Counted from the stretch's first letter, positions 3,101-39,913 are shown. The stretch: DNA of 64,000 nucleotides from Armatimonadota bacterium (GCA_046292385.1 JBKBRF010000006.1:137449-201448), one strand, 5' to 3'. Notes: generated from the sequence alone by a model not told the origin. Made by a program: numbers and translations.

Positions 3101-3510
3101 CGCATGAGGGAGCGGAACTCCTCGCGGTCTTCCGCCATGCGGATCGACTTCAGCGGGGTGCCGAGCAGCTCGACGTCGTACTTCTCCAGGATCCCCTGGG
3201 CGGCGAGCTTGGTCGCCAGGTTCAGCCCGGTCTGGCCGCCCAGGCCCGGCGCCAGGCCGTCCGGACGCTCCCGCGCGATCACCCGCTCCGCGAACTCCAC
3301 GGTGAGCGGCTCGATGTAGACCCGGTCCGCGATCTCCGTATCGGTCATGATCGTGGCGGGGTTGGAGTTGATGAGGACGACTTCGCAGCCCTCTTCGCGG
3401 AGAGACTGGCACGCCTGGGTGCCGGCGTAGTCGAACTCCGCGGCCTGGCCGATGATGATCGGACCGGAGCCGATCACCATCACTTTCTTGATTTCGGGTC
3501 TCTTAGGCAT
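199..3510 (-). CDS. carB: Carbamoyl-phosphate synthase large subunit
   Basis: [31 protein letters not shown]-terminus, duplicated ATP-grasp halves ([10 protein letters not shown] / EVNPRSSRT), C-terminal MGS domain. Confidence 0.98.
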
Positions 3511-3547
3511 CTGAATGCTTACTGCTGGTGATTGAAAAGAAAATGTC

Positions 3548-4663
3548 TTACTTGGAGCCGCCGGCCCCGCTCTGCGCTTCGAGCGCGGCGACGAAGCGGT
3601 TGAACAGGTAGGCGCTGTCCCGCGGGCCGGGGTTCGCCTCCGGGTGGTACTGGATGGTAAAGACCGGCAGCTCGCGGTGGCGCAGCCCTTCCACGGTCCC
3701 GTCGTTCAGGTTCACGTGGGTCACTTCCAGCCCGCTCTTCTCCAGGCCGGCGGGGTCGACGGCGTACCCGTGGTTCTGGCTGGTGATGTAGACGCGACCG
3801 GTCTCCAGGTCTTTCACCGGGTGGTTGCCGCCGCGGTGTCCGAACCGGAGCTTGAAGGTACCCGCCCCGAACGCCTTCCCGACGATCTGGTTGCCGAGGC
3901 AGATCCCGAAGGTCGGCTTGCCGCTGTGGATCAGCTTCCGGGCGGTCTCCACCACGTCGGCCAGGTGCTTCGGGTCGCCCGGGCCGGGCGAGAAGGCGAT
4001 GCCGTCCGGGTTGCGCTCCAGGATCTCTTCCGCGGAGGCGGTGCAGGGAAAGACCGTGGTCCGCACCCCCTGCTCGCCGAGCGCGCGGAGGATGTTGTAC
4101 TTCACGCCGCAGTCGAGCAGGCTCACGTCGAACACGCGGCCGTCGGGACGGGTGGCGGTCGGCTCCCACACGTACGGCTCCGGAGTGGTGACGCGGCGCA
4201 CGAAGTCGATCGCGGTGTAGTCGGGCGAGCTCCGCAGGTGCGCGGTCGCCTCTTCCGCGTTCATCTCGGAGGTGACGACGCCCATCATCACGCCTTGCTC
4301 GCGGAGGCGGCGGGTGAGCGCGCGGGTATCGATCCCCTCGATGCCGACGACGTTGCTCCGGTGCAGGAACGACTGCAGGTCTTCGCCGGAGCGCCAGTTG
4401 CTCGGCATCTCGCAGAGCTGCTTCACGATGAAGCCGGAGACCTGCACCCCGCGGGATTCCAGGTCGAGCTCGGTCACCCCGTAGTTCCCGATGAGCGGAT
4501 AGGTGAGGGTGAGGAGCTGACCCGCGTAGGAGGGGTCGGTCAGCATCTCCTGATAGCCCGTCATCGAGGTGCTGAAGACCACCTCTCCGGTGACGGTACC
4601 TGCCGCGCCGATGCTGCGGCCCTCGAACACGGCTCCATCTTCCAGTACCAGCAAGCTTCGCAT
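3548..4663 (-). CDS. carA: Carbamoyl-phosphate synthase small subunit
   Basis: [32 protein letters not shown] glutamine amidotransferase motifs. Confidence 0.98.
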
Positions 4664-4730
4664 ACTACCTGTCCCACCTGTCCGCCCGAAGGTCCGGGCG
4701 CTCTCTCATCCAGATCTTCACGCGGTGCGC

Positions 4731-6053
4731 CTACCCGACGAGCTCGCCGTCCCGCACGAGCACCTTGCCGTCGACGATCGTCGCCACGGCCGCCCCGCGA
4801 AGCTCCCAGCCGAGGAACGGGGTGTTCTTGCTGCGGCTGTGGAGCGTCTCCTCGCTCACCACGAAGTCGCGGTCGACGTCGAGGATCGTCACGTCACCGG
4901 GGGCGCCGAGCTCCAGCGTGCCGATGCGGCGATCGACCCCGGCCGGGAGGTCGTGCCCGTCTCCGATCAGCACCCGCGCGGGGTTCACGGTGAGCTTCGC
5001 GATCGCGTCGGAGAGGGAGACGATGCCGGGGCGGACCAGCCGGTCGAGCGTGAGCGGCACCACCGTCTCCAGCCCCACCATCCCCATCAGCGCGCGGTCG
5101 AACTCGCAGTCCTTCTCCTGGATCGCGTGCGGCGCGTGGTCCGTGGCGATGCAGTCGAGCGTGCCGTCCTGCAGCCCTTCCAGCACCGCGGCGACGTCGT
5201 CCGCGCTCCGGAGCGGCGGGTTGACCTTGGCCTGTGTGTTGTAGCCGAGGCACGCCTCGTCGGTGAGGCAGAAGTGGTGCGGGCAGCCCTCCGCGGTGAC
5301 CGGCAGCCCCTGCGCCTTGGCGCGGCGGACCAGGTCGACCGAGACGCGCGTGGAGACGTGGCAGATGTGCACGCGGCACCCGGTGAGGCGGCTCAGCTCG
5401 ATGTTGCGGGAGACCATGATGTCTTCCGCGGCGTTCGGGATCCCCCGCAGGCCGAGCAGCGTGGAGACCGGCCCCTCGTTCATCGCGCCGTCGCCGGCGA
5501 GCGCCTTGTCCTCGCAGTGGAGCGCCACGCCGCGGTGAAGCCCGTAGGCATACTCCATCGCGCGCCGCATCACCTCGGCGTTCTGGATCGGGAAGGCGTC
5601 GTCGGAGAAGAGCGCGGCGCCGGAGGCGGAGAGGCGGCCCATCTCCGCCAGCTCTTTTCCGGCATTCTGCTTCGTCATGGAGGCGAAGACGTGCACCTTC
5701 ACGCCGATCGCCTTCTCCGCCTTCTCCTGGATCAGCTCGACCACGGAGGGGTCGTCGATCGCCGGGTCGGTGTTCGGCATGCAGCAGACGTGCGCGAAGC
5801 CGCCCGCCGCCGCCGCGCGGGTGCCGGTGGCGATCGTCTCCTTGTACTCCTGGCCGGGCTCGCGCAGGTGCACGTGCACGTCGATGAAGCCGGGGCAGAC
5901 GACGCGGTCCGAGGCGTCCAGCACCTCATGCCCGCCGTCCGGTAGCCCCTTGTCGATCGCCGTGACCCGTCCGTTCTCGATCAGGAGGTCCGCCTCCGTG
6001 TCGAGCCGCTGCGCGGGATCGATCACCCGCCCGTTCTTGATCAGCAGTCCCAT
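4731..6053 (-). CDS. pyrC: Dihydroorotase
   Basis: PGFIDVHVHLREPG, MPNT, KVNPPLR, IATDHAPH; pyr operon context. Confidence 0.96.
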   Translation of the reverse strand: MGLLIKNGRVIDPAQRLDTEADLLIENGRVTAIDKGLPDGGHEVLDASDRVVCPGFIDVHVHLREPGQEYKETIATGTRAAAAGGFAHVCCMPNTDPAIDDPSVVELIQEKAEKAIGVKVHVFASMTKQNAGKELAEMGRLSASGAALFSDDAFPIQNAEVMRRAMEYAYGLHRGVALHCEDKALAGDGAMNEGPVSTLLGLRGIPNAAEDIMVSRNIELSRLTGCRVHICHVSTRVSVDLVRRAKAQGLPVTAEGCPHHFCLTDEACLGYNTQAKVNPPLRSADDVAAVLEGLQDGTLDCIATDHAPHAIQEKDCEFDRALMGMVGLETVVPLTLDRLVRPGIVSLSDAIAKLTVNPARVLIGDGHDLPAGVDRRIGTLELGAPGDVTILDVDRDFVVSEETLHSRSKNTPFLGWELRGAAVATIVDGKVLVRDGELVG

Positions 6054-8103: not shown

Positions 8104-8697
8104 ATGTCGGAGACAGCGGTACGACTACACCGGAAGACGCGGGACGACTACCGCGCGCTGCCGGAAGGGCCTCCCTACTACGAGCTGATCGACGGAGAGC
8201 TGATCGAGATGACGCGCCCTTCCGAGCTGCACAACGAGATCGCGCTTACCCTGGCGGAGTGGTGGCGGGCACATCTTCGGACCGGGGTGGGCGGCGCGCT
8301 CTCGATCGAGCCCAACCTCTACCTGCCGAATCTCGAATCGGTTTACCACCCGGACCTGGCCTACATCGCCCCGGAGCAGCGCTCGATTCGGAAGCGGGAC
8401 GGCATCTACGGCGTCCCGCAGGTGATCTGCGAGATCCTCTCCCCGTCCACCGCCAGTCTGGACCGGTCGGTCAAGCTGAACGACTATCGCCGGGCTGGGG
8501 TGCCACACGTTTGGCTCGTCGACCCGGTGCGACCCGTGCTGGTCCAGGAGTTCGTGCTTGGCGAGAGCGGCGCCTACTCCCTTCACAGCAGCCTGACCGC
8601 ACCGGCCGAATGGGAGCCGGCGGCGTTTCCGGGGTGGACCATCTCCCTCGCGGAGCTGGATGCTGCCGTGGCGTCGGTGGAGGAGGCTAGCGAGTAG
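8104..8697 (+). CDS. Uma2 family (DUF820) putative endonuclease
   Basis: YELIDGELIEM..PS..H, PDLAY, PQVICEILSPST..LDRSVKL..Y...GVPHVWLVDP. Confidence 0.92.
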   Translation: MSETAVRLHRKTRDDYRALPEGPPYYELIDGELIEMTRPSELHNEIALTLAEWWRAHLRTGVGGALSIEPNLYLPNLESVYHPDLAYIAPEQRSIRKRDGIYGVPQVICEILSPSTASLDRSVKLNDYRRAGVPHVWLVDPVRPVLVQEFVLGESGAYSLHSSLTAPAEWEPAAFPGWTISLAELDAAVASVEEASE

Positions 8698-9710: not shown

Positions 9711-9773
9711 CCATGCCCGACGCCCTCTGTCTCTCTGTCTCTCCGTCTCTCCGTCTCCGAAGGTCCCTACGTG

Positions 9774-10961
9774 TCAGCGACCGGCCGGCATCTCGGCAAT
9801 CTTGAGGTTGCGGAACGAGAGGTCCGTGGTCGGGTCGTGGCCCTGGAGGCTCACGACGCCGGGGGCGGCGCGGTAGCCCTGGCGGGCGTTGTTGTTCGGC
9901 GGGCGCATGTCGGTGAAGTCGCTCACCTGGATTCCGTTCACCCAGACCGCGATGTGCGGGCCGTGCGCCACGATCGTCTTGGTGAACCACTCGCGGTCGC
10001 TCGGAATCACGCGCCGCGCCGGCTGGCGGTTGTAGACGCCGCCGGTGCCGTAGTCGACCGGCTTGGTGCGGTCGTCGCCTTCCCACTGGTTGCGGATCTG
10101 GCTCTCGTAGCCGCTCCAGAACTCACCCGGCGTGCCGCGGAAGAAGACGCCGCTGTTCAGGTGGGTGCCGTTGGAGATGATGTCGAGCTGGAAGACGAAA
10201 TCGCCGAACTGCGCCTCGCTCTGGAGGTCGCCGTTCCCGTCCTTCACGTTCAGCCAGCCTTCCGGGGTGACGGAGTAGACCGACTTCCGTCCCGGAATCT
10301 CCTTCCAGCCGGTGAGGTCCTTGCCGTTGAAGAGGCTCTTCAGGCCGAGCGGCTGGAGCTTGACGTTCCGGAAGCGGACGGTGCCTTCGCCGTTGTACTG
10401 CAGGCCGATCGTGCCGCGCCGGTACTTCGAATCGCGGGTGTCGACCGTCTTCCGCCCGTTCAGCAGGACCACCAGGCGGTCACCGTCCGCGGTGATCTCG
10501 TAGCTGTTCCAGCGGCCGGTGGTGCGGGGCGCGCGGCCGGAGGCCCTGGCGACGTCGTTGATGCTGCCGGTCGGCCACATCGGGTGCTTGTCGTAGATGT
10601 TCACCTCGTAGGCGTTCTGCTGCGTGATCTCGCCGGAGGTGGGGCAGCGGAGGAAGACGCCGCTGTTCGCGGCCTCGTCGACCCAGAACTCCGCCTTCAG
10701 GCGGTAGCTCGGAAAGACGGTGGTGGTGCTGAGGACTCCCTTACCGCTGCCGGGCACCGCCGCCAGGGTGCCGTTCTCTACGCGCCAGGTCGCGTCGCCG
10801 CGCTGCTCCCAGCCGAACGGCGTCTCTCCATCGAAGAGAAGGATCCAGCCGTCCGCGATCTCCTTCGCGGTAAGGGGGGTGGTGCCGCGCTCCTGCGCGC
10901 CCGCCGCCGCGGCGAGCAGGGTCAGCGCTGCCAGTGCTGCAAGTCGGATGAAGTGCTTCAT
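9774..10961 (-). CDS. Secreted protein with two DUF1080 (3-keto-disaccharide hydrolase-like) domains
   Basis: Signal peptide; LLFDG..GW, NSGVF, YEVNI/YESQI, IGLQ / SLQGHDP, FRNVK/FRNLK, each present twice. Confidence 0.9.
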   Translation of the reverse strand: MKHFIRLAALAALTLLAAAAGAQERGTTPLTAKEIADGWILLFDGETPFGWEQRGDATWRVENGTLAAVPGSGKGVLSTTTVFPSYRLKAEFWVDEAANSGVFLRCPTSGEITQQNAYEVNIYDKHPMWPTGSINDVARASGRAPRTTGRWNSYEITADGDRLVVLLNGRKTVDTRDSKYRRGTIGLQYNGEGTVRFRNVKLQPLGLKSLFNGKDLTGWKEIPGRKSVYSVTPEGWLNVKDGNGDLQSEAQFGDFVFQLDIISNGTHLNSGVFFRGTPGEFWSGYESQIRNQWEGDDRTKPVDYGTGGVYNRQPARRVIPSDREWFTKTIVAHGPHIAVWVNGIQVSDFTDMRPPNNNARQGYRAAPGVVSLQGHDPTTDLSFRNLKIAEMPAGR

Positions 10962-11153
10962 GGATTCTCCCGCCTGGCCGCCAGGCTCCGCGGCCACACG
11001 GGTTCAGTTTACTTCATCTCCGGAGAACGTCCGCCGGGACCGCCCTCTAGTCGGCGCGAGCAGACGCCAGAATAGGTAGAGACGACGCCGGATCGACGCA
11101 TGTTCCGTTTTCCCGCAGGGGATCGGCGGCAGGGGAAAGGTGGCCGGAGAGAG

Positions 11154-11720
11154 ATGCGCTGGGGCTTCTTCAGGAAGAACCGCGAGCCGGAGGCGGGCTC
11201 GGCCGGAGCGGCCCCCGCGCCGGACCTCCCGTCGGCGGAGATCGACGACGAGCTCGCCTTCCTCCGGAGTCGTCCGGACTTCGACGAAGAGGAGATGGCT
11301 TCCGTCAGCCCGACGGCCGGGCCGGTGGTGACCGAGTCTCCCCGGGACGTGCGGGAGCCGTGGCAGCTCGCGGCGGAAGCGGTGGCGGCCCTGGGCGAGC
11401 GCACTCCGGTGGCTCCCCGGCCGTTCGCTACCGGCACCACCGCCTCGGCAGCGCCCGCGGAGGAGCTGACCGAAGAGGACCGCATGCTCGGCGCGCTGCT
11501 CGCGGAAGCGATGGGGCTGCCGGGAAGGGAGCCGGAAGTCGGATCCGCGCAGGTCGAGGCATCGCCCTCGGAGCGGGTGACCGGCGAGGTACTGGCGGCC
11601 CTGGTGCCGGAGTGGGCGGACGAGGCGCGCAGCCCGGCCGACCTGCTCGACCTGGCGTTGGAACGTGGTGAGAACGCGGGGCTTATCCCCGACCGCATCG
11701 ATTCACAGGCGGGTGGCTAG
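11154..11720 (+). CDS. Hypothetical acidic low-complexity protein, first gene of the ParA/Hsp70 operon
   Basis: GGAGA RBS, host-like codon usage, N-terminal MRWGFFRK, Glu/Ala/Pro rich; ends 18 bp before the next gene. Confidence 0.6.
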   Translation: MRWGFFRKNREPEAGSAGAAPAPDLPSAEIDDELAFLRSRPDFDEEEMASVSPTAGPVVTESPRDVREPWQLAAEAVAALGERTPVAPRPFATGTTASAAPAEELTEEDRMLGALLAEAMGLPGREPEVGSAQVEASPSERVTGEVLAALVPEWADEARSPADLLDLALERGENAGLIPDRIDSQAGG

Positions 11721-11738
11721 CCCGTCGTTCAGCAAGCT

Positions 11739-12848
11739 ATGCAAACGCTCGCGATCATCAGTCATAAAGGCGGCGCCGGCAAGACCAGCTCCTCCGTAAT
11801 GCTGGCCGAAGAGCTGGCGGGGCGCGGCTACCGGGTAGTGCTCGTGGATGCCGACCGGCAGCGCGGCGCGGGACTCCTGCTCGGCATCGAGCAGCCGACC
11901 GGGTCGGTGCAGCAGACGCAGCACGCCCGCCTGCGCTACTTCTGCAGTGCGGGAGTGCCGCTGCGGGAGCTACCGCAGCGCGCGCAAGAGCTTTCCGGGC
12001 TCTTCGACGTGGCGGTGGTCGACACCCCGTCGCTCGACGACCCGCTGGCCCGCGGCTGGATCCAGGTGGCCTCGCACGCGCTGATGGTGATTCCGGTGGA
12101 GCCGATCAGCATGCGCACCCTCGGCGCCGCCGAGGCGACGCTGGGGAGCGTCCGGAAGCTGAACCAGGGTATCGAGGTGATCGGGCTGCTCCCGACGATG
12201 TTCGACGAGTCGGAGTCGACGCAGCGCACGCTGATGCTGGAGCTCCGCTCGCGGCAGGGCGACGTGCTGCTGCCGGTCTCGATCCCGCAGGATTCCGGCC
12301 TCGCCCACCGGGCCGAGCAGAAGGCGGAGCGGCGTACCGCGCCAGCTCCCGCTACGCTGCAGGCCTATGCCGGCGCGGCCGACTTCGCGATCCAGAAGCT
12401 GCGCCTGGAGAGCCCGGCGGCGGCTCCGGCCGCCGCGGTGCCGGCGGCGATCGGGGCGCCCGCGGCCCCGGCTTCTTCGAACGGGGCCGCCGTCCCGCCC
12501 TGGTCGGCGCGCCGCCGCCCCGAAGCTGCCCCGGCGCCGGTGGCGGCCCCGGCCGCAGCCGTGGCGGCGCAGAGCGCTGCCCAGCCGGCAGCAGCCCGCC
12601 CGGAGCCGGCAGCGGTCGCGGCTCCCGCGGCAGCCGCCCCGGCCCCGGCACCGATGCCGGCGGCCGCACCCGCGGGCGGCGCGAAGTGGACGCTGCTCCA
12701 CACGGTGATCGTGGTGCTGGCGGTCGCGGTCGCGGTGCTCGCCACCGTGCTGTTCATGCGCACCCCCGACGCCGCCGTTCCGGCGCCCGGCGCCGGCGTC
12801 CAGCAGCCCCAGAACCCGGCGGGCGCCCCCGCCGGCCAGCCGAAATAG
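11739..12848 (+). CDS. ParA/MinD-family ATPase with Ala/Pro linker and C-terminal transmembrane helix
   Basis: HKGGAGKTS deviant Walker A, VLVDAD, VVDTP, LLPTMFD; hydrophobic VIVVLAVAVAVLATVLFM near the C-terminus. Confidence 0.88.
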   Translation: MQTLAIISHKGGAGKTSSSVMLAEELAGRGYRVVLVDADRQRGAGLLLGIEQPTGSVQQTQHARLRYFCSAGVPLRELPQRAQELSGLFDVAVVDTPSLDDPLARGWIQVASHALMVIPVEPISMRTLGAAEATLGSVRKLNQGIEVIGLLPTMFDESESTQRTLMLELRSRQGDVLLPVSIPQDSGLAHRAEQKAERRTAPAPATLQAYAGAADFAIQKLRLESPAAAPAAAVPAAIGAPAAPASSNGAAVPPWSARRRPEAAPAPVAAPAAAVAAQSAAQPAAARPEPAAVAAPAAAAPAPAPMPAAAPAGGAKWTLLHTVIVVLAVAVAVLATVLFMRTPDAAVPAPGAGVQQPQNPAGAPAGQPK

Positions 12849-12864
12849 ACGCGAGGAGCCACGG

Positions 12865-13695
12865 ATGGAGTATTCAGCTCAAGCTCAGGCAGCCTCCGGA
12901 TATGGGACCGCGGGCATCCACGCGCCCCAGGCCTCCGGCAGGCAGCGCGCGCTCCGGCGCATCATGTTCGCCAGCCAGAAGGGCGGGGTCGGCAAGACCG
13001 CGTCGGCGGTGAACGTGGCGGCGAGCCTGGGCCTCTCCGGCTACCGCACGCTGCTGGTGGACACCGATCCGATCGGCAGCGTCGGCGCCTGCTTCGGGGC
13101 CTCGGTCGCTCCCGGGCATCCCGGCCTCTTCGGCATCGAGCAGTGGGAGCTGGCCGACCTGGTGATCCCGGAAGTCGGCACGAACCTCGACCTGCTTCCC
13201 TACGCGGAAGACCGCCGCGCCATCGACTTGAACGCGCTGCACCGCTCGCTGGTGGAGCTGGGGCGGCGCGCGGCGGGTGAATACGACTACGTGATCATCG
13301 ACACGCGCCCGTCGGTGGCGGACATGACCCGGCGGCTCTGCCAGGTGGTGGACGAGGTGGTGGTGGTGTTCCAGTGCCACCCGCTCGCCTACCGCACGCT
13401 CGGCGGTATCCTCGGGCAGCTCCGCGACGCCCGGGCCGACGGTGCCGGCGCCAACCTGCTGGGCCTGCTGCTCACGATGGTCGACCCGTCCGACCCGAAC
13501 CAGGCGCAGCTCGAAACCCACATCCGCCGCAGCCTCGGCGCGGCGATGCTCCCGATCTCCATTCCCCAGGACCAGACCGTGCAGGAAGGGCTGATGGAAG
13601 ACCGGCCCGCCGTGCTCTACCGGCCCGACTCGCCGTCCGCACGCGCCTATCGGCAGTTGACGGAGCACCTGGTCAGCGCGCGGACCCTGGCGTAG
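12865..13695 (+). CDS. ParA/Soj-family ATPase
   Basis: SQKGGVGKTAS, LLVDTDP, YDYVIIDTRP, LLLTMVD, PDSPSARAYRQL. Confidence 0.92.
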   Translation: MEYSAQAQAASGYGTAGIHAPQASGRQRALRRIMFASQKGGVGKTASAVNVAASLGLSGYRTLLVDTDPIGSVGACFGASVAPGHPGLFGIEQWELADLVIPEVGTNLDLLPYAEDRRAIDLNALHRSLVELGRRAAGEYDYVIIDTRPSVADMTRRLCQVVDEVVVVFQCHPLAYRTLGGILGQLRDARADGAGANLLGLLLTMVDPSDPNQAQLETHIRRSLGAAMLPISIPQDQTVQEGLMEDRPAVLYRPDSPSARAYRQLTEHLVSARTLA

Positions 13696-13724
13696 GCCCG
13701 CGGTTTCACAACAGGTAGTAAGTG

Positions 13725-15380
13725 ATGAAAACCGTCTACTCCATAGGGATCGACTTCGGCACCAGCAATAGCTGCGTGACGTATGCGACCTACCTCGATC
13801 GTGGCGACGGCGGCGTCGTCTCCGAGCCGCTCCACCGGCCCGAGGCGATCCCGTTCCAGCACCGCGAGACGCTGCCGACGATGCTGTTCCTGGGCGACGG
13901 CCGGGAGCAGCCGCCGCTCTTCGGCGCGCTGGCGGAGGAGAAGGCGCCGTTCTATCCGGAGCTCACCCGTTCCGGCTTCAAGCTGCGCCTGGGGCATCCC
14001 CAGCACGGCCGGGAGGCGTTCCTGCTGGCCAAGCAGTTCCTCGCCCACCTGCGGGCTCGCGCCGCGGAGGTGGTGCCGCTGGGCAAGAAAGACCCGAACG
14101 TCCGCTTCGAGACCGTGATCGGCCACCCGGTCCAATGGAGCGCGGACCAGCGCGAGGAGACCCGGCGCGCCGCCGTGGAGGCCGGCTTCCCGAACGTGCG
14201 ACTGGAAGAGGAGCCGATGGCGGCGCTCTTTAGCCACCTCTGCGACGACCGCGACGGGTTCCAGCCGCGCCCCGGCAGCCGCATCCTGATGGTCGACTTG
14301 GGCGGCGGCACCACCGACTTCGCCTTCCTGCAGCTCTCGATGACGCCGGAGGAGCGCCCGGTCTCGATCCCGGTCGACCCTGCCGGCAGCGTCCCGGCGT
14401 GGGGCGACGGCCGCCGCACCTACGGCGGGCGGGACCTGGACCAGCTCCTGCTGCAGTACATGACCCGGGAGTGGGATCCGGCGATGGTGAAGCGCCACCG
14501 GCAGGCGCTGCTGCGGGAGGTCCGGCGGTTCAAGGAGGCGTTCTCCAACCGCATGCGCGACGGCGCGCACGAGCACGAGGGCCTCTGGCTGCTGGGCGAG
14601 CAGGCGGTTTCGGTGCGCCTCACCCGCGACGAGTTCGAGACGCTCGCCGCCGAGTACATCGCCCAGTTCGAAGTGCTGCTGCGCGGCGCGCTGGAAGAGG
14701 CGCGGGTGGCACCGCGGCAGGTCGGGTACCTCGTCCTCACCGGCGGTCACTCCCGCTGGTACTTCGTCGACGAGGCGCTCCAGCGGGTCTTCCCGCATCT
14801 TTCCACCGCGAGCCGCACGATCCTGCGGCACACGAACCCGGAGCAGAGCGTGGCGCGCGGCCTGGCCTACACGCCGCTGGTGCGGAGCAATGCGTCCGGC
14901 GTGATGGCCCCGGTGCGGCGCTCCGCGCATGCCGTGTGGGTAGCGGTGCCGAACGGGTCGCTGGCGGCGCAGGGCGCGCCGTCCGGCCAGGCGTGGGAAG
15001 AGCCGGTGCTGCTGATCCCGCGCGGGCAGCAGCTTCCGTTCCAGAGCCGCACGCCGCTCCGCATCCGCGTGGAGCAGCTCGCCCTGGATGCCCGGGAGGC
15101 GACAGTGAACATCCGCTTCTTCAGCGGACAGCGCCGCATGCCGCTGGGCGAGCGGGTGGCGCGGTTCGAGCGGGGATTCTGGGAGCAGCTCACCAAGTCG
15201 TTCTCCCTCTGTCTCCCGTGGATGCGCAACGTGAGCGCGGACCAGTTCGAAGTGCTGGTGGCGTGCCAGGTGGATGAGAACGAGCTGATCACGGCGGAAG
15301 TGCTGGTCACCCGCTACCTGAAGGGCAAGCCCCAGGAAGTGCAGCGCCAGAAGATGCAGCTCAGCAGCGCCGCGGCGTAG
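13725..15380 (+). CDS. Atypical Hsp70-family ATPase
   Basis: IGIDFGTSNS, EEPMAA, VDLGGGTTD, GGRDLD, LTGGHSR, PEQSVARG; short divergent C-terminal region. Confidence 0.88.
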   Translation: MKTVYSIGIDFGTSNSCVTYATYLDRGDGGVVSEPLHRPEAIPFQHRETLPTMLFLGDGREQPPLFGALAEEKAPFYPELTRSGFKLRLGHPQHGREAFLLAKQFLAHLRARAAEVVPLGKKDPNVRFETVIGHPVQWSADQREETRRAAVEAGFPNVRLEEEPMAALFSHLCDDRDGFQPRPGSRILMVDLGGGTTDFAFLQLSMTPEERPVSIPVDPAGSVPAWGDGRRTYGGRDLDQLLLQYMTREWDPAMVKRHRQALLREVRRFKEAFSNRMRDGAHEHEGLWLLGEQAVSVRLTRDEFETLAAEYIAQFEVLLRGALEEARVAPRQVGYLVLTGGHSRWYFVDEALQRVFPHLSTASRTILRHTNPEQSVARGLAYTPLVRSNASGVMAPVRRSAHAVWVAVPNGSLAAQGAPSGQAWEEPVLLIPRGQQLPFQSRTPLRIRVEQLALDAREATVNIRFFSGQRRMPLGERVARFERGFWEQLTKSFSLCLPWMRNVSADQFEVLVACQVDENELITAEVLVTRYLKGKPQEVQRQKMQLSSAAA

Positions 15381-15428
15381 ATCGCCTCCAAAAGCGATCC
15401 CGCCCCGGCGAGGTGGGGAGATTCGGAA

Positions 15429-15968
15429 ATGAGCCAGATAGAGAGTTACACGACCGAGCGGCGCGGCTGGTGGGACCGCCTGTTCGGCTCCGTGGCAGGT
15501 CGAACGGAGGGTGAGATGCAGTATGAGTTACCCGCGGACTCGCTGTTCGCCGGCACGTGGAGCGGTGGGGGCGTCTCGTCGATCGCGGACGTTCCGGAGC
15601 AGGTGAAGCACCAGATCCGGGAAGAGGCAGTCCTGGAGACGTTCAACCGGCTGGAAGCGTCGCTGCGCTTGCTGTTGTACGCCACGACGCCGGACAAGGA
15701 GCCGCCGGACGCGGAGCAGTGCCGCCAGATCCTGAACGTCTGGCGCTACGAGCTGGAGCACCGGGTGAAGCTGACGCCGGACACCTACTGCGGGGCGGTG
15801 CAGCGCTACGAGCCGGAGATGGAGCGGGCGTACACGATCGACGCGCGCTGCCAGCCGGGCGACCTGCTGCGGATCCGGGTTCCGTGCTGGAGAATGAACG
15901 AGCGGGTGGTGGTGCGCGGCGAAGCCGAGCCGATCGACTCCCCCGTCGAGGCCCCGGCCGAGCGGTAG
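15429..15968 (+). CDS. Divergent GrpE-like protein (putative nucleotide exchange factor)
   Basis: Helical middle followed by G..QRYEPEM..AY......PGDLLRIRVPCWRMNERVVVRGEA, which parallels the GrpE beta domain; directly follows the Hsp70 gene. Confidence 0.55.
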   Translation: MSQIESYTTERRGWWDRLFGSVAGRTEGEMQYELPADSLFAGTWSGGGVSSIADVPEQVKHQIREEAVLETFNRLEASLRLLLYATTPDKEPPDAEQCRQILNVWRYELEHRVKLTPDTYCGAVQRYEPEMERAYTIDARCQPGDLLRIRVPCWRMNERVVVRGEAEPIDSPVEAPAER

Positions 15969-16013
15969 AGACCCGATGCGCGGCCGCTGCCCCAACCCTC
16001 AGGAGAGCGCCGC

Positions 16014-16496
16014 ATGATCTCGCTGCACGACTACCTCCGCGCTCGCCACGGCGGCGCCTACCGCGCCCTGCTGCGGAGCCTGAACGGGCTCACGGAACAG
16101 CAGGCGCTCGAAGGCGCGTCTCCGCACTGGAAGCGCTACCGCCTGGGCACCGGGCTTGACGGCTCGATCGCGGGGATCGTCTGGCACGTCGCCGCCTGGA
16201 AGGCGGTGGCGGCGGACGGTCTCGACACCGGCCTCTTCCCGGACGCGGAGGCGGTACTGCCGGCCGAATCGACCTGGGCGGGGCTGCTCTCCTGGCTGGA
16301 GCTCTCCCACTCCCGCCTCACCCGCTACCTCGACGAGGCTCCACCGGAGGCGCTCTCCCACACCGTCACCGTGGAGGGGGAGGCGATGCGGGTCTACGAG
16401 CTGTTCGGCCACTGGATCGAGCACGACCAGTACCACGCTGGGCAGGTAAACCTGCTCCGCCAGCAGCGCGGCCACACGTTCCCCGGCGAGGAGTGA
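16014..16496 (+). CDS. DinB/DUF664-family four-helix bundle protein
   Basis: SIAGIVWHVAAW and HDQYHAGQVNLLR metal-binding His pattern; AGGAG RBS. Confidence 0.85.
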   Translation: MISLHDYLRARHGGAYRALLRSLNGLTEQQALEGASPHWKRYRLGTGLDGSIAGIVWHVAAWKAVAADGLDTGLFPDAEAVLPAESTWAGLLSWLELSHSRLTRYLDEAPPEALSHTVTVEGEAMRVYELFGHWIEHDQYHAGQVNLLRQQRGHTFPGEE

Positions 16497-16896: not shown

Positions 16897-17475
16897 TTAG
16901 CTGCCTTTGATCTCCAGCAGCTCCACGTCGAAGACCAGGTCCGCGTTCGGCGGAATGGGACCGCCGGGAGTACCCTGCGCGCCGTAGCCCAGGTCCGACG
17001 GGATCACGAGCTGGCGCTTCTCGCCCACCTTCATGCCTTCCACGCCAATATCCCACCCCTGGATCACCCGACCCATGCCGAGGGGGAAATCAAAGGGTTG
17101 GCCACTGTCCCGAGAGCTGTCGAACTTGGTGCCGCCCTCACGGAGCCAGCCGGTGTAGTGCATCACCACGTTGTCACCAGCCTTGGCCTCCTGGCCGCTG
17201 CCCGGCTCGATGATCGCGTAGGTGAGCCCTTCCTTCACCTGATACTTGTCCTTGTCCAGCTTCGCCCAGGGACCCTCACCCGGGATCAGCGGCTCTCCGG
17301 CGGAGGCGGTGCCGCCTTCCGGCGCGTTACCGGTTTCCGGGGTGTTGCCCGTCGCCGGCTCGCTCGCGGTGTTGCCTGCGGGCGCGTTCCCGGTGTCGGA
17401 CGGCGTCTCGGCCGGAGTGCACCCCGCGGTCAGCGCGGTGAGGGTCGCCAACACGGCGATTGGAATCCATCGCAT
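16897..17475 (-). CDS. FKBP-type peptidyl-prolyl isomerase, lipoprotein
   Basis: Lipobox [43 protein letters not shown]. Confidence 0.93.
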   Translation of the reverse strand: MRWIPIAVLATLTALTAGCTPAETPSDTGNAPAGNTASEPATGNTPETGNAPEGGTASAGEPLIPGEGPWAKLDKDKYQVKEGLTYAIIEPGSGQEAKAGDNVVMHYTGWLREGGTKFDSSRDSGQPFDFPLGMGRVIQGWDIGVEGMKVGEKRQLVIPSDLGYGAQGTPGGPIPPNADLVFDVELLEIKGS

Positions 17476-17494
17476 CACGAACTCTCCTTGGTCT

Positions 17495-18310
17495 CTACTT
17501 GCCAACACCGAGCAGCTCCACCTCGAAGACGAGGGTGGAGCCCGCCGGGATCGGGCCGATCGCCCGGTCGCCGTAAGCAAGGTCCGCGGGGATCACGAGC
17601 TGGCGCTTCTCACCGACCTTCATGCCGGCCACGCCTTCATCCCAGCCCTTGATCACTTCCCCGCCGCCGAGCGTGAACGCAAACGGCTGCTCCCGGTCGA
17701 CGGAGCTGTCGAACTTCGTGCCATTGGTGAGCCAGCCGGTGTAGTGGACCTCCACCCGGTCACCCTTCTTGGCGGCGCTCCCCTTGCCGGGTGTCATGAT
17801 GGCGTACTTCAGGCCGCTCTTGGTCTTCGTGAACGCTTTCTCTTCCAGCTTCTGGGGCTTGGTGGGGGTCTCCACCACGTTGCCCAGCTTCACCAGCTCG
17901 ATCTCGAAGATCAAGGTGGCGTTGCCGGGGATCGGTCCGCCCGGGGTGCCGCGCTCGCCATAGGCCAGCTTCGGCGGGATCGTGAGCTGGCGCTGCTCGC
18001 CCACCTGCATCCCGGTGATTCCCTCTTCGAAGCCGGGGATCACCATCTGCCGGCCGAGCCGGAACTCGATCGGCTCATTCCGGTCCCGGGAGGAATCGAA
18101 CTTCTTCCCGTCGGTCAGCCAGCCGGTGTAGTGGACGAACACCTGCTGCCCGCTCCGGGCGGCGTCGCCCTTGCCCGGCTTCAGCACGGCGTATTTCAGG
18201 CCGCTCTCGGTGGTCTTGACCTTCTCCGGGTCGACCTTCGCCGGCTCGCTCCAGGCGGCGGTCGCCAGGGAGAGCGCCGCCAGCAGCGGCAGGCTCGCGC
18301 GTAGTGACAT
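17495..18310 (-). CDS. FKBP-type peptidyl-prolyl isomerase with two FKBP domains, secreted
   Basis: Signal peptide; two HYTGWL..G.KFDSS...[15 protein letters not shown] units. Confidence 0.93.
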
Positions 18311-20168: not shown

Positions 20169-20520
20169 TCATCTATCTAAACTCCACTTGAGACGATAAG
20201 CGTTTTGATACGCCGCTCGCTGGCAATCGCAACCCGACAGCTGGTCCATCCAGCCGCGAGGCCAATGCGGATGCGGCCGACCCAACACCGAGAGCAGACG
20301 ATGATTGCTTGCTTCATTCAGTGGTGGACGCCCGGCACCTCCGAACGCGCGCTCATTGATGACCTCCGCTAGCAGCAGGAACCCCGGAAGCGCCGAGAGG
20401 AAGGAGATACTCACCACGTCGCCTTCCGGCTCCGGCTCGAGACGTAGCTCAGAGCAAATCTCAACTCTATCTCCATCACCTAGCAGCCTCCCAGCAACGG
20501 AGCGTTCTCCGGAGCAAGCA
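20169..20520 (-). pseudogene. Possible C-terminal remnant of a ThiF/E1-like protein
   Basis: Open frame ICSELRLEPEPEGDVVSISFLSALPGFLLLAEVI...GCDCQRAAYQNAYRLKW resembles C-termini of ThiF-like enzymes; no intact N-terminus. Confidence 0.3.
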
Positions 20521-21196
20521 CGCCACCCGCCTCCAGCAGTCCCGTGGACAGGGTGCTCCCGAGCGCTGGAACTCCAACACCGCGGCGATAGAGCCGAGAC
20601 GGGCGGAACTTCCTCGCGGGGCTGCGGGCTCTTCAGTCTCGCTCATCGGCTCGGCGTCGAGCCGGAGATCCGCAACAAGTGGCCGGTGAGTTACTCGCTA
20701 AGCCCATCCGCCAGAGGAAGCGCCCCCTCGCTCTTCATTCACGGGAACGTGTTAGCCGACAGGCGCTCGGAGCGCCTATCATCGCTGGCTCCGAGATCCC
20801 GTACTGATTAGCTTGGTGTCAGAACCAGGAAGGCCGGCGGTTCCTCGGGTCGCACCGAGGAACGCACCCATGCCAACCAGCCTCAATCGCCGCACCCGAG
20901 AGCCCAGCAGCCAAGGCTCACGGCGATAGCCACTAGCGTCGAAAGGAAACGGTGCCCAGGAAAACAAAAACTGGCGCGTGACATGCAAGGATTGCAGAGG
21001 TCTATTGCACTCGCATCCCGAAATGGGTTCTGGTGGGCATCCTAGTCGGTGCCTCGAGCGCCAACGCAGGTGTTGGCAGCGTTGATGCCCAGTCGACCCG
21101 CCGGTGAGGCTCAACCGATCCCGACGCTACCTTGTGCTCTAGTAGGAAGCTTCATTGCGCCGGCCGCCGGCTCACGTACGAAGAAGGGAGAACAAC

Positions 21197-22420
21197 GTGC
21201 GTCACGGCTCGATAGCATTCTCGTTGTGGCTAACTGCCACCTTTGCCGCAACGCTTACTCGCGCTGGTGCGGACCCGTCCCTCCCCTTGACTGAAGCTGT
21301 CGCCCAAGCCAAGGCGCGGAACCCAGTGGCTGCGGCCGCACGCGCCGAGGCCCGAGCCGCGCGCCGCGGCTTAATAGTTGCCAGGTCCTACCCAGCAGCT
21401 CACCTCATCTATGCTCCTGCGATCACCAAAGGTGGCGCACTGGAAGAGTTACGAATCAGCCAACCACTTGAGTTCGGGAGGACGCGAGCGTCGCGTATAG
21501 GTGTCGCTCGCGCCCATGTGGCGGAGGAAGAAGCAACCGCCATCACAGAGATATCTGCACTGGTTTACGACGCGAAAAGCGCATACTTCGCCCTCGGGGA
21601 ATCCCGAGCTCTTGCCCAGGCACATGCTTCAGCCATCGAGGCTACCACGGGTTTTCTTGAGACCGCCCGCAAGCGCGTTCTTTCCGGCGTGGCGCGCCCC
21701 GAGGACGAGGCTCTCCTCCAGATGTACCTCGAAGATTTGCGCATGAGCGCCGAGGAATACGCTATGAGCAGTAGGAATGCGGCAGTTTGGCTCAACACTC
21801 TAATGGCACGATCCCCTCAGGACCCAATAGGCGATCTGGAGCCGCTTTCGGTTGTGCCGATGTCCATGACGCAGGAAGAGGTGATCGCCAAGGCGCTCCA
21901 TCAAAGCAGTTCACTGAGAGTGGATGCAGCGCGGCGCTCCAGCTTCGAGCAGCAAGCCAAGCAAGCAAGTAGTCTCGATGACCTCAAGGTAGCATTGCAT
22001 TACCGTGCGGAAGAGGTCACGCGTGACATTCGCGAACAAGGATTCGGCGTTACGTTCGTATTGCCGCTTGGCAGTCAGAAAGGCACACGTGCCGCGGCTG
22101 ACCAGAAAAGAGCGCTTGCGTTGTCGCAGCAGCATAGGGAAACAGCGACGGAAAACGCTATTCGGAACGACGTGATCACGATCATGGGCGAACTCGCGCT
22201 CCTTGAGCAGTCCCTATCAGAGCACAAAGCCCGTATCGCATCTCGACAGCACATACTCCAGACACTCACGCGAGACTTTGAGACGGGTTCCGGTTCTGCA
22301 CCCGCACTCATTGAAGCACACAGAGCATATCTGAAAGCCAGCAACGACGCCATCCGGTTCCGGGCAAGACATGCTCGTGCCAAGGCCCTGCTCGATCGAG
22401 CCATGTCCGAGACCGATTGA
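21197..22420 (+). CDS. TolC-family outer membrane efflux protein (CzcC-like)
   Basis: Signal peptide, LTEAVAQAKARNP, ISQPLEFG, two helical repeats; GGGAG RBS before GTG 21197. Confidence 0.85.
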   Translation: MRHGSIAFSLWLTATFAATLTRAGADPSLPLTEAVAQAKARNPVAAAARAEARAARRGLIVARSYPAAHLIYAPAITKGGALEELRISQPLEFGRTRASRIGVARAHVAEEEATAITEISALVYDAKSAYFALGESRALAQAHASAIEATTGFLETARKRVLSGVARPEDEALLQMYLEDLRMSAEEYAMSSRNAAVWLNTLMARSPQDPIGDLEPLSVVPMSMTQEEVIAKALHQSSSLRVDAARRSSFEQQAKQASSLDDLKVALHYRAEEVTRDIREQGFGVTFVLPLGSQKGTRAAADQKRALALSQQHRETATENAIRNDVITIMGELALLEQSLSEHKARIASRQHILQTLTRDFETGSGSAPALIEAHRAYLKASNDAIRFRARHARAKALLDRAMSETD

Positions 22421-22464
22421 CGAAAACAACCCGGTTTAGTGTCGTGTCAGGGAAGCAAATCAAC

Positions 22465-23346
22465 ATGGGCACGGAAGTTACCAAAGTATACACTGGAGCG
22501 GTCGAGTTCAACAGCTGGGCACGTGACCACACCGTGCTTATGTATTCTGACGATCCGACCCAACTTCTTGACGTTGCACTTTCCTTCTATTCACTTCCCT
22601 CGACCCATCCATTGACCCCGAGTCAAGCATTAATCGGTGGTGAGGACTTCAGGGTTTATGCAAACAACCTCGATGTCACGACTGCCGTCCTTGCCGAGTT
22701 GCAGGACATGGTCAAAGCAGCGGATAAATCTCGTCTCCGCTCAGAGTACCTTCAGGGTGCACGCTCATACATCCGGTACTTGCAAGCACTGGGCACCCAT
22801 GTGCAACAGACAGCTGGGGATCAGGCTTTCGCAGAAACCCTCGCTATGACCTCAGATTGGCCCGTGCACTTCTCACGTCTGGGAGACAGAACGTATGGAT
22901 GGAGTGGCAATCTCCACCCATTTTCTTTCCTATATCGCACCATACAGATTCCGCCCATCCTCTTATCAAAAGTATGGGTGCGCTACCGATCGGCAAACCC
23001 GATGCCACTTCCTCAAACGCTCGCCGAACTGCCACTTCGAAGTATTAGCTTCTCTTGTGGCCCGGCACCTTCGTTTGAACACTTCGACCCTAGCACGTTC
23101 AACCCCGGTGGCGTACTTGTCTATGCGCTGGAGGCCGCGTACGTTAACCCATTGGAGGAACCGCTACAGGACATCCTGAGGCAACTCGATCAACTAGCAC
23201 GTGGGTTGGAGACAGTGAGAACCGAGTACTTGGAGGTGGCTCTCACCTCGATAGAACAAATCGAGCGCGATCTAAAGGCGCTTCAATCATCCACAGTGAC
23301 TCGGCTGGAGCAATTAACGCAGGCCGTGGAGCATATTGCTCCGTAA
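22465..23346 (+). CDS. Hypothetical protein with C-terminal coiled coil
   Basis: Long ORF in low-GC DNA, tightly packed; heptad-like LQDILRQLDQLARGLETV...LEQLTQAV; start 22465 or 22417. Confidence 0.7.
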   Translation: MGTEVTKVYTGAVEFNSWARDHTVLMYSDDPTQLLDVALSFYSLPSTHPLTPSQALIGGEDFRVYANNLDVTTAVLAELQDMVKAADKSRLRSEYLQGARSYIRYLQALGTHVQQTAGDQAFAETLAMTSDWPVHFSRLGDRTYGWSGNLHPFSFLYRTIQIPPILLSKVWVRYRSANPMPLPQTLAELPLRSISFSCGPAPSFEHFDPSTFNPGGVLVYALEAAYVNPLEEPLQDILRQLDQLARGLETVRTEYLEVALTSIEQIERDLKALQSSTVTRLEQLTQAVEHIAP

Positions 23347-23360
23347 CAGGGACGCCATCG

Positions 23361-24596
23361 GTGCAACTCGGAAACTATCCAGACGACCCAACACCAGGCA
23401 CTCTGGTGACGATAAAGAAGAGGATTGACGATGCAGTAAGCAGTGTGCTCCGCCTCACGGAATCGTCGACGAAGCTTGCGGCCAGTTCAAACCGAGTTGC
23501 CACGCAGTTCTTAGATCCAAATTCGCTCCAGGGGAGATTCTGGGGGCAATCGGCAAGGTTCTCAGTGGCGGTAGCAGAGCGAACACAAGATGTCGAACTG
23601 GCCATCCAAGAACGGCGGCTCAATGCGCTAATCGGAAGCACAACTCTCCATCCGATCTCGATCACTCAAGGTGATGTAACTGCGCACATAAGACCGTTGA
23701 GAAGTCCGACCGTGATTTGGACGGGTTTGGGTGTTCCACGCGCCTTGGCTGATTGCCTGTTCATACGCACCGAGTGGCGTGTCACTGTATCGGGTAGTGC
23801 GCCCAGAGATGTGAGCATCCTTCACTCGGTCATGCTCAACCTCCCTAATGAGCAGCGTCAGATCACATTGGCGGAGACTAACGCCCCCCGGTACTTGGAC
23901 TCCAGTGGCGAAATCATCGATCCCTTTGCATCCGTACCTCGGAAGAATAGCACCCGAAGTTCACTTAAGAAGCAAACCTTTGATGGAATCACGAGGGAAC
24001 TACGAAGAATACGCACGACGCTTCCCGCTCTCCCGCGGCTACCAGCTAACTTCCGCCCGCATCTCTTTCACCGAGATTATAACCTGGTTTTCGTGGGCAG
24101 AACTCTTCCGAAGCGCCGGCAGCGATTCCCGCTTTGGGTTGGGCCTATCTTTCATAATCAAGGCATTCGCCTGAAGAAGGAGCACCTTGTGCCGGAGATA
24201 CGGAACGGAATCGAGACGCAGGGCGTAAGGCTCCAGGAAATCACTTTTAGCTATGGTTTTATTGGCCTGAAGGTGCATAGGCATGATCGCTACCGCTTCT
24301 TATGGGTAACCATAGACACGGACGTGTGGCTAACGTTTGAGTTAAGGTTTCCACAGGTTGCGCCAGCACTGCTCCGCAGCAGGGCGCAGCAAGTGGCTTA
24401 CCATTGGAAGTATGAACTAAAGAACTGCTGGCCGATATGCGACGAAGTCGGGGAGTATGTTCAGGGGCGAATTGAATCCGAGATCAGGAGACACCGCGTC
24501 TTGACATTCCCTTTCCAAGATTTGCGTAGTTCCGCTACGGAAGCTCAAGCAGGAGTCACCCCGTACGGGGTTGCAATCACGATGGAGGTTCGCTGA
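23361..24596 (+). CDS. Hypothetical protein (basic, beta-rich)
   Basis: 411 aa ORF, 14 bp after the previous stop and 1 bp before the next ATG; no recognised motif. Confidence 0.7.
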   Translation: MQLGNYPDDPTPGTLVTIKKRIDDAVSSVLRLTESSTKLAASSNRVATQFLDPNSLQGRFWGQSARFSVAVAERTQDVELAIQERRLNALIGSTTLHPISITQGDVTAHIRPLRSPTVIWTGLGVPRALADCLFIRTEWRVTVSGSAPRDVSILHSVMLNLPNEQRQITLAETNAPRYLDSSGEIIDPFASVPRKNSTRSSLKKQTFDGITRELRRIRTTLPALPRLPANFRPHLFHRDYNLVFVGRTLPKRRQRFPLWVGPIFHNQGIRLKKEHLVPEIRNGIETQGVRLQEITFSYGFIGLKVHRHDRYRFLWVTIDTDVWLTFELRFPQVAPALLRSRAQQVAYHWKYELKNCWPICDEVGEYVQGRIESEIRRHRVLTFPFQDLRSSATEAQAGVTPYGVAITMEVR

Positions 24597-24597
24597 C

Positions 24598-25410
24598 ATG
24601 GCTGACACTTTTATTTGGCGAATGGACGGCACTGCTCATAAGTCGTCAGTCGATCGCCTGCGACAGGAGATTATACACGCCCACACTTCCCAGACCCCCT
24701 TGGCCATCTCCATAATCCTTAACGCCCTGCCAGTAGAGTCTCCGCAGAGTGGCGCTGCTGTAAAGAGAGGTGCGTTCAAGATCACGGGGAAGCAGTTCGA
24801 GAACGTCGGTAGCAAGGAGTTGCGGATGCAGTTCAGCGACCCAGCACTAAAAGATTTCACCGTTACCATACCGAAGCGGATTAGTGGTGCAATCGACAGC
24901 ACAACCCCTGCTCTCCGTATCAGCTTTGACAGTTTGCTCTTAGCGGACATACCTCGGCTGGCCGAGTTAGGGATCAATAGGTCTCGGTTTCAGCGAGTAA
25001 CGGGTTTCGAGTTGTCTGCCGCTACATCGGTAACCTTTCTCGCCGACGATCTTAATCCAGACAGGTTAACATGGATTGACGTTGCGCTGACAGATGCGGC
25101 CCACCGAGCATCCACGGCGGCGACCCTAATGGAGTTGGCGATGATGGCCCCGCAGCTCGCGCGGTGTCCCGAGGTCGGGGAGGTAATGCCTGTTGCATTG
25201 AGAGCGGATGATCCGTGCTGTGGTGATGAGGAAGAGAAGATATGGTACGTCGGGCGCCGTCACGGCACCGAAGGGCAGCGCCTTTGCGAGATTGCGTGCC
25301 ATAAATTCATCGTTGGCGGGCAGGTGGCGTACGACAATGTTTGGGGCCCCGACACCAAGAAAGGCTGCAATGACTATGAGGCCTTGAACTGTCCAGGCGG
25401 GCTGTGTTGA
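24598..25410 (+). CDS. Hypothetical protein with Cys-rich C-terminal domain
   Basis: GGAGG RBS before ATG 24598; all 8 Cys lie in the last ~80 aa, ending CPGGLC. Confidence 0.75.
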   Translation: MADTFIWRMDGTAHKSSVDRLRQEIIHAHTSQTPLAISIILNALPVESPQSGAAVKRGAFKITGKQFENVGSKELRMQFSDPALKDFTVTIPKRISGAIDSTTPALRISFDSLLLADIPRLAELGINRSRFQRVTGFELSAATSVTFLADDLNPDRLTWIDVALTDAAHRASTAATLMELAMMAPQLARCPEVGEVMPVALRADDPCCGDEEEKIWYVGRRHGTEGQRLCEIACHKFIVGGQVAYDNVWGPDTKKGCNDYEALNCPGGLC

Positions 25411-25459
25411 GCTTCTAGAGGTCGCACAACTGGTCCTGCAATGTCGGTGAATTGATGAA

Positions 25460-26161: not shown

Positions 26162-26170
26162 CGCGCAGGT

Positions 26171-26634
26171 TCAGGCAGCGAGGGGTCGCCGGGCGAGCCC
26201 TGGCTTCCGCCGGGGCCGATAGTGCTGCAACCGGTCTAGGCTCCAGCAGCCAAACGGCAGCCCGAAGGCCTGCGGATCGGTCAGGGCCGTGGCGATCACT
26301 CCCGCCACTCGCTCCGGCGTGTAGGTCGGAGGCATCCCGACCGCGGTTTCTCCTGCAGCCCCACCAGCCCGCGGGTATTGAACTGCTTGAGGCAGTGCCG
26401 CACCCGCGGTTCGGAGCGCCCCACGCGCCACGCCACCGCTGGCACCCGCTCCCCTTGGACCAGTTGCCAGATCAGCTGCGCCCGCTCGACCCCGCGGGCT
26501 GATGCCGTGCAGGGATGGGCGAGTGCGCGCACCTGCTCCCGCTCTTCTGTTGTTAGATCCTTTACTCGTAGCGCCACCCCCGGATCTTAGCCGATCGGCA
26601 GGATTCTGTTCAGCACTTCCCGGATGCACCACTA
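26171..26634 (-). mobile_element. IS630-family transposase remnant (frameshifted, truncated HTH region)
   Basis: LTTEEREQV..LA...RAQLI...VRHCLKQFNTRGLVGLQEKPRSG, then after a frameshift PPTYTPE...TALTDPQAFGLPFGCWSLDRL; DDE domain missing; TA-bounded end near 26634. Confidence 0.82.
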
Positions 26635-39830: not shown

Positions 39831-39913
39831 GGCGCGGCCCCGGCCGGCGCCCCTATCCCGCGACTTCGACTACGCGGGGCGGCAGAGTGGGGGCGGGGGA
39901 GGCTCCGCATGGC

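Follow-up and report, generated by a model that had tools for sequence, protein, structure and literature searches.

A conserved Armatimonadota gene cluster of two ParA/MinD-type ATPases, a predicted lidless Hsp70 and a putative exchange factor

ParA/MinD ATPases and Hsp70s are both well-studied ATP-driven switches of bacteria, and to our knowledge they have not been described as one machine. Whether they might form one was the question raised by a gene cluster at 11154-16496 of a 64,000-nt window, the whole stretch of DNA analyzed here, which is part of a 201-kb contig (C6) of an Armatimonadota genome (7.0 Mb, 98% complete, 70% guanine plus cytosine, GC). In this cluster, two ParA/MinD-type ATPases (ParA1 and ParA2), an Hsp70-family protein (Hsp70L) and a 179-residue protein with a predicted GrpE-like fold (GrpEL) were encoded one after another, behind a gene for an acidic protein. 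Our preferred reading is that a membrane-tethered ParA module is coupled to a private Hsp70/exchange-factor machine in a lineage-specific five-gene operon. We infer the coupling from operon structure only, and the reading is offered tentatively, at a probability of roughly 0.45.

The cluster consisted of six plus-strand open reading frames (ORFs). The first gene, for a 188-residue acidic disordered protein (11154-11720, alternative start at 11100), was followed by ParA1 (11739-12848), ParA2 (12865-13695), Hsp70L (13722-15380), GrpEL (15429-15968) and a DinB-superfamily gene (16014-16496; DinB_2, expectation value, E, 3.3e-10). An initial annotation of this DNA had reported six co-oriented genes with gaps under 50 bp, and the gaps were indeed 18, 16, 26, 48 and 45 bp. 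The third-position GC (GC3) of the six ORFs was 0.84-0.93, the lowest value being that of the first gene, as for real genes of a 70% GC genome, and the GC content of the operon (0.69-0.73) was host-like. On the plus strand, no terminator-like site was found within the cluster or before 16892. A sigma-70 promoter scan returned 0 sites, and Rfam gave no match in the whole window.

Gene order in related loci indicated that these genes are conserved as a unit and did not come together by chance. The counts were taken over loci with an Hsp70L 66-77% identical to that of the window, from five other genomes of the same family (f1) and from metagenome contigs. ParA2 lay directly upstream of Hsp70L in all eight loci with sequence there, ParA1 was present in 6/6 loci, and GrpEL lay downstream of Hsp70L in 7/7. 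The order ParA1-ParA2-Hsp70L-GrpEL was kept, with short gaps, wherever a locus was long enough to show it, and downstream neighbors varied; the divergent hydrolase gene upstream was kept in four of the five loci that extend 2 kb or more in that direction. The initial annotation had named a gene-neighborhood search among the checks on its proposal, and the homologs did co-occur. It had also placed the DinB gene in the unit, a part of the proposal that was lost: no DinB homolog was found in the related loci (0/4 of those with at least 1 kb downstream). Because DinB was not conserved with the cluster, the conserved unit has five genes, with the DinB gene possibly co-transcribed with the operon here. 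Equal-sized contigs in the Hsp70L and ParA1 match tables (19 shared sizes, 12 with all three genes) suggested, indirectly, that further contigs carry the Hsp70L-ParA1 linkage, including a clade of 57-62% identity with long ParA1-like genes (three shared sizes). Hsp70L relatives better than E 1e-100 were present in eight of 41 Armatimonadota genomes, namely all seven of family f1 and one (G016) of another family; the class itself comprises eight genomes, seven of them with Hsp70L.

By sequence, ParA1 and ParA2 were assigned to the ParA/MinD-type ATPases. Both exceeded the Pfam cut-offs for CbiA and AAA_31 (ParA1: E 4.8e-16 and 3.4e-12; ParA2: E 1.3e-15 and 2.9e-21, respectively), and both carried a deviant Walker A motif with the signature lysine (KGGAGKT in ParA1, KGGVGKT in ParA2). 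The equivalog cut-offs of NCBIfam were not reached: ParA_partition scored 63.7 and 68.6 versus 180, and BcsQ, the best model for ParA2, scored 79.5 bits versus 157.85. The two proteins were each other's closest paralogs in the genome (33% identity, E 3e-20). ParA1 consisted of an ATPase domain (about residues 1-225), an Ala/Pro-rich disordered linker, one C-terminal transmembrane helix and a short tail, the helix corresponding to a single strongly hydrophobic stretch of 19 residues (322-340). A C-terminal hydrophobic helix was kept in all seven ParA1 orthologs, and was also found in 3/3 more distant long forms, the linkers of which span 150-250 residues. The earlier description of one membrane-anchored and one soluble ParA was upheld. 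The absence of parB, minC/minE and J-domain genes nearby, likewise reported earlier, could be widened in scope: ParB_N had five matches in the genome, none of them on contig C6, and MinC and MinE had 0 matches in the whole genome.

Hsp70L was recognized by Pfam PF00012 (E 3.9e-21) over residues 130-388 only, which is a part of the nucleotide-binding domain (NBD); the ATG at 13725 is probably where its translation begins. The AlphaFold2 model of the protein was confident (predicted local distance difference test, pLDDT, 88.2; predicted template modeling score, pTM, 0.85) and comprised an NBD (1-390) and a domain like the beta part of the substrate-binding domain (SBDbeta; about 395-547), with the protein ending at residue 552. 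Compared with full-length ATP-state DnaK and BiP, the model aligned over 447-457 residues (Z 34.6-35.4), from residue 1 or 5 to residue 551 of Hsp70L with DnaK 2-508 or BiP 24-530, and the alignment stopped where the lid starts. With NBD-only chains, 332-349 residues were aligned (Z about 35, root-mean-square deviation, rmsd, 2.6-2.9), about 100 fewer than with the full-length chains. Hsp70L is accordingly modeled with an SBDbeta, and it ends where the helical lid (SBDalpha) of DnaK would start. Aligned to the DnaK of the same genome, with which Hsp70L is 26% identical, K87, E164, DFGTSNS and GGGTTD were invariant in 23 family members, and P136 and R144 were also conserved. Since the two catalytic residues (lysine and glutamate) and the pair of phosphate loops are kept and the lid is missing, Hsp70L is predicted to be a catalytically competent lidless Hsp70. 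The hydrophobic interdomain linker was not found, the DILLLDV of the genome's own DnaK being aligned to an unrelated stretch of Hsp70L.

The initial annotation had set this module apart from the housekeeping chaperone genes, and the results agreed, as Hsp70L and GrpEL differ from the genome's own DnaK and GrpE. The housekeeping hrcA-grpE locus lies at 54250-56091, with a CIRCE inverted repeat at 54250-54276 (2 mismatches) before the genes, and the genome's dnaK and dnaJ are on another contig (C62). No CIRCE element was found near the cluster. As the element occurred only before hrcA-grpE, the operon is outside that heat-shock (CIRCE/HrcA) regulon. Elsewhere in the phylum, several Armatimonadota genomes (loci L161-L168) carry a second, Pfam-recognizable GrpE directly beside a second Hsp70, so private GrpE-Hsp70 pairs seem to be common in the phylum.

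The AlphaFold2 model of GrpEL (pLDDT 79.0) contained three helices (57-112) followed by a small beta domain (116-168). In a Foldseek search, ranks 1-9 were all GrpE or GrpEL1 chains, with a best E of only 6.5e-3 and template modeling scores of 0.39-0.41. In a second look, GrpE of Thermus thermophilus aligned over 118 residues and across both subdomains (Z 6.9, rmsd 4.2), the next GrpE reached Z 4.6, and no fold except GrpE spanned both subdomains. In gene order, GrpEL adjoins Hsp70L in two arrangements, across two families. A search of 1.84 billion representatives with a GrpEL profile recovered only 34 members and no bridge to GrpE; 16 distant members were without a Pfam family, and two weak multi-domain matches were TPR or low-complexity proteins. 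The profile found nothing relevant by sequence in the PDB, and in an Atlas look-up the nearest named cluster was GrpE, at 0.87, below the level that counts. "GrpE-like" is a reasonable name for the predicted fold, short of demonstrated membership in GrpE, and GrpEL is a putative private nucleotide-exchange factor of Hsp70L.

One residue of GrpEL, C141, was nearly invariant, and a conserved cysteine would suit another explanation, in which the operon serves metallocluster or membrane-protein delivery by two Mrp/NBP35- or Get3/ArsA-type NTPases and an HscA-like Hsp70. The best NCBIfam matches of Hsp70L were HscA models, but their 80.1 bits are far under the cut-off of 620. ParA2 passed PF10609 (NUBPL iron-transfer NTPase) over its full length with 43.8 bits versus a cut-off of 27.1, although it scored higher for the generic AAA_31 and CbiA. 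Weak P-loop matches to ArsA, Get3 and BagA were also obtained, those to Get3/ArsA covering the first 40-50 residues only. Mrp/NBP35 proteins carry a CxxC motif, which is absent from both ParAs, and there is no IscU, IscS or HscB gene nearby and no J-domain on the contig. A delivery system is therefore highly improbable.

The protein encoded by the first gene had been described as acidic and as a possible partner or adaptor of the ParAs. It was acidic, as described (isoelectric point 4.21), and also disordered (Atlas model pLDDT 0.50, pTM 0.21), and its description was revised by comparison with its relatives. No family was matched in Pfam, NCBIfam or PADLOC, and an Atlas look-up returned nothing. 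In relatives, the gene at the same place encodes a protein of 250-300 residues with an FHA domain (E 1e-10 to 3e-16), FHA being a phosphothreonine-binding domain. Besides the FHA domain, these proteins have three motifs in common: a basic-aromatic one at the N-terminus, another conserved one, and an acidic helix at the C-terminus. The window protein retains the N-terminal motif (MRWGFFRK) and the C-terminal one. By tblastn, the FHA proteins of the relatives matched the window only at 11154-11309 and 11463-11693, with the FHA core absent. On this comparison, the first protein reads as a cut-down, FHA-less form of an FHA-domain protein. The start at 11154 was supported by a GGAGAG motif just before the ATG and by the N-termini of the relatives.

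Across the related loci, FHA (PF00498) was found in five of seven first-gene proteins and four of six loci (two proteins in L023 and one each in L025, L026 and L040), and was absent from the first-gene proteins of the window and of L027. Contigs of four DNA runs were compared with the window. A contig of DNA run X1, possibly the source sample, spans 10800-12032 without differences, so the FHA-less first gene is no obvious assembly break there. Among the listed pieces of an independent DNA run (X2), none bridges 11232-11424, leaving the FHA loss without independent confirmation. The two FHA proteins of L023 are tandem first-gene copies (3225-4960) upstream of ParA1, 38% identical to each other. 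FHA proteins were also seen away from the operon. On contig C60 of the window's genome (G000), an FHA protein, a Ser/Thr kinase and a vWA protein are encoded in a row (L013, 4986-8900), 3.7 kb from a lone Hsp70L paralog. Among the sequences of that genome, this FHA domain matches the FHA proteins of the relatives' operons best (44-50% identity). In another genome (L017), an FHA protein is encoded 1.5 kb from an Hsp70L paralog.

A number of results weigh against the coupled reading. The first group concerns GrpEL, for which the earlier name of GrpE-like protein stood as to the predicted fold and failed in all sequence tests. The protein belonged to no family in Pfam, NCBIfam or PADLOC, and 17 members gave no Pfam match at E up to 10. 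A six-frame search of the genome with PF01025 detected the housekeeping GrpE and missed the GrpEL gene, and hhalign against 24 Armatimonadota GrpE sequences gave a probability of 0.5% and 0.6% in two alignments, the second of them colinear over 85 columns and not significant. When 48,161 chains were searched independently of Foldseek, GrpE had a top Z of 6.8, which did not stand above helical bundles (Z 5.2-6.4). A second group concerns the other partners. The classical J-triggered Hsp70 cycle is doubtful for Hsp70L because there is no linked J-domain gene and the DnaK-type hydrophobic linker is absent; PF00226 had seven genome matches (six over the cut-off), none on C6, and a J-protein encoded elsewhere could serve. 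The FHA domain of the first protein is dispensable, being absent in the window and in L027. Finally, all linked loci came from close kin (one class, eight genomes), so the co-occurrence may have arisen independently only once, or twice at most.

The distribution of Hsp70L also bears on the main rival explanation, that two independent modules share the operon with no physical cooperation: ParA1, ParA2 and the adaptor for positioning or signaling at the membrane, and Hsp70L with GrpEL as a chaperone with its own clients. The GrpEL gene of G016 is followed directly by one or two Hsp70L genes, with no ParA, and the genes around them (RuvX, YceG, HAD and glycosidase) form a housekeeping context. 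As the Hsp70L/GrpEL pair occurs there without ParA, the two halves are separable and can work apart. Paralogous Hsp70L genes (52-59% identity), including one on contig C60 of this genome, were found without ParA or GrpEL in eight distinct loci; in a quick tree with the genome's own Hsp70s as the root, the lone paralog was placed apart from a group of the ParA-linked, the 57-62% and the G016-type clades. ParA1 orthologs (E 1e-25 or better) were present in only six of 301 genomes of the phylum, all of family f1, so the ParA genes look like a later addition. These points fit separate modules and count against coupling. On the other side are the fixed order and tight spacing of the four genes in all sufficiently long loci, where downstream neighbors change, and the equal-sized contigs, which suggest linkage also in the second Hsp70L clade. 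Two modules that merely share an operon appear less likely than not.

If a membrane-tethered ParA module is coupled to an Hsp70 machine, its operation could be envisaged as follows. ParA1 would be held at the cytoplasmic membrane by its long flexible linker and C-terminal transmembrane helix, and would form ATP-dependent sandwich dimers there with ParA2, probably as heterodimers. The adaptor, the product of the first gene, may use its basic-aromatic peptide at the N-terminus to engage the ParAs or the membrane and, where an FHA domain is present, could tie the assembly to Ser/Thr-kinase signaling. Hsp70L would cycle on a client in the assembly, which might be the adaptor, the ParA1 linker or other cargo, to build, release or reset it, and GrpEL would recycle Hsp70L. 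Such a scheme supposes that Hsp70L and the ParAs come into contact.

Orphan ParA/MinD positioning systems include MinD-MinE, McdA-McdB, PomXYZ and ParC/PpfA. The operon resembles these in having deviant Walker A ATPases without ParB and an adjoining gene for a small disordered partner with a basic N-terminal peptide. However, it has two paralogous ATPases, an Hsp70 and a putative exchange factor, and the anchor of ParA1 is a transmembrane helix on a long linker, not an amphipathic helix. A bolder form of the coupled reading would take the operon as a new kind of ParA positioning, in which a membrane-tethered ParA heterodimer has a private, J-independent Hsp70/exchange-factor pair as its cycling or cargo-remodeling partner, in the role of MinE or ParB. 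We regard this form as unlikely.

The combination of a membrane-anchored ParA with an Hsp70 could also belong to a conflict (anti-phage or anti-mobile-element) system, in which the ParA would act as a sensor or switch and the Hsp70 as an NTP-dependent switch. One precedent is the proposed PCTM system, described in the accessible part of a 2026 preprint as a ParA with a C-terminal transmembrane (TM) domain and an upstream gene (bioRxiv 10.64898/2026.10.19.760177). ParA1 is built likewise, with its ParA domain in the cytoplasm and a TM segment at the C-terminus, and it too has a linked gene upstream. In contrast to PCTM as outlined in that part of the preprint, the upstream gene of the operon is of the FHA or disordered acidic kind, not SLATT, 2TM, caspase or CPPC-4h, the helix of ParA1 has no periplasmic sensor domain behind it, and the genes after ParA1 encode another ParA, an Hsp70 and a GrpE-like protein. 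A second precedent is provided by the GAP1-N2 GTPase conflict systems, which, in the available portion of Kaur et al. (2020, PMC7159879), include a theme of HSP70 with GrpE and some Hsp70s without a peptide-binding domain. A dedicated pair of Hsp70 and GrpE(-like) genes inside a multi-NTPase operon is common to both, whereas the DO-type GTPases and the FNIII-repeat proteins fused to DnaJ/TPR that this portion describes are absent here.

PADLOC returned weak matches to PDC-M28B for the ParAs (E 9e-6 to 7e-5) and to PDC-M61B for Hsp70L (E 1.9e-4), but these were confined to the P-loop region. The operon contains no effector domain (nuclease, SLATT, caspase, TIR and similar), no GTPase, tubulin or J/FNIII protein is encoded nearby, and there is no mobile-element gene. 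Its host-like GC content and fixed chromosomal place, with the same divergent neighbor in most loci, also count against a conflict function, as does its presence in nearly all family members, whereas defense islands are usually patchy. Taken with the precedents, these observations make a conflict system quite unlikely.

The coupled reading must also be compared with known Hsp70 machines. Hsp70L and GrpEL resemble DnaK-GrpE(-DnaJ) in the intact catalytic NBD, the modeled SBDbeta and the adjacent protein with a predicted helix-plus-beta fold. They differ from it in that Hsp70L has no lid, hydrophobic linker or linked J-protein and only distant identity to the genome's own DnaK, GrpEL is unrecognizable as GrpE by sequence, and the operon is without CIRCE control. 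In Myxococcus xanthus, sglK is preceded by a grpE-like gene, grpS. In the parts of the reports available, SglK and StkA of M. xanthus are non-heat-shock Hsp70 paralogs that serve a cell-surface or motility process (PMC8265645, PMC4319316), and SglK, a DnaK-type protein of full length, was able to complement a dnaK mutant of E. coli (PMC8265645). Hsp70L is similar as an Hsp70 paralog outside the CIRCE/HrcA regulon, but SglK is full-length, and no ParA partners are described in those parts for either protein. The initial annotation knew of no named system with this gene set, and full-text literature searches likewise turned up no description of a ParA pair with an Hsp70 and a GrpE-like gene. The pairing of Hsp70L and GrpEL with two ParAs, one of them tail-anchored, appears to be new.

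The operon is flanked upstream by a divergent minus-strand gene of the 3-keto-disaccharide hydrolase family (9774-10997; PF06439, E 1.7e-75) and downstream by a convergent gene for an FKBP isomerase (16897-17580). A plus-strand ORF at 9771-11075 was considered as the upstream gene and rejected; it is an antisense shadow of the hydrolase gene, which accounts for its tblastn matches. Two genes upstream of the divergent neighbor, a putative restriction endonuclease of the Uma2 family is encoded at 8104-8697 (E 3.5e-31). Further downstream, an island of low GC content (20300-26200; 0.54-0.61 versus 0.67-0.74 around it) holds six co-oriented plus-strand ORFs, of which Pfam assigned one an outer-membrane efflux protein (OEP) domain and the remaining five no family; as it had no Rfam match, the island is not an rRNA operon. 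At 38490-42838 on the minus strand, the gene for a 446-residue protein with a C-terminal FHA domain adjoins that for a 974-residue TPR protein, as far as seen unrelated to the operon.

The significance of the operon is limited by its narrow distribution in uncultured Armatimonadota. Within that range, its striking features are a membrane-tethered ParA, an Hsp70 that has neither a lid nor a J-protein, and a putative exchange factor beyond the reach of sequence profiles. With Hsp70L, a further protein joins the Hsp70s that may operate without triggering by a J-domain, and GrpEL suggests that GrpE-fold factors can escape annotation. A conserved operon joining ParA and Hsp70 would point to a new way for bacteria to build or reset a membrane-associated assembly. 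If the proposed positioning role of the ParA heterodimer were true, the operon might serve, under Ser/Thr-kinase control, to position the site of division or some other structure of the envelope, in a class without detectable MinC or MinE.

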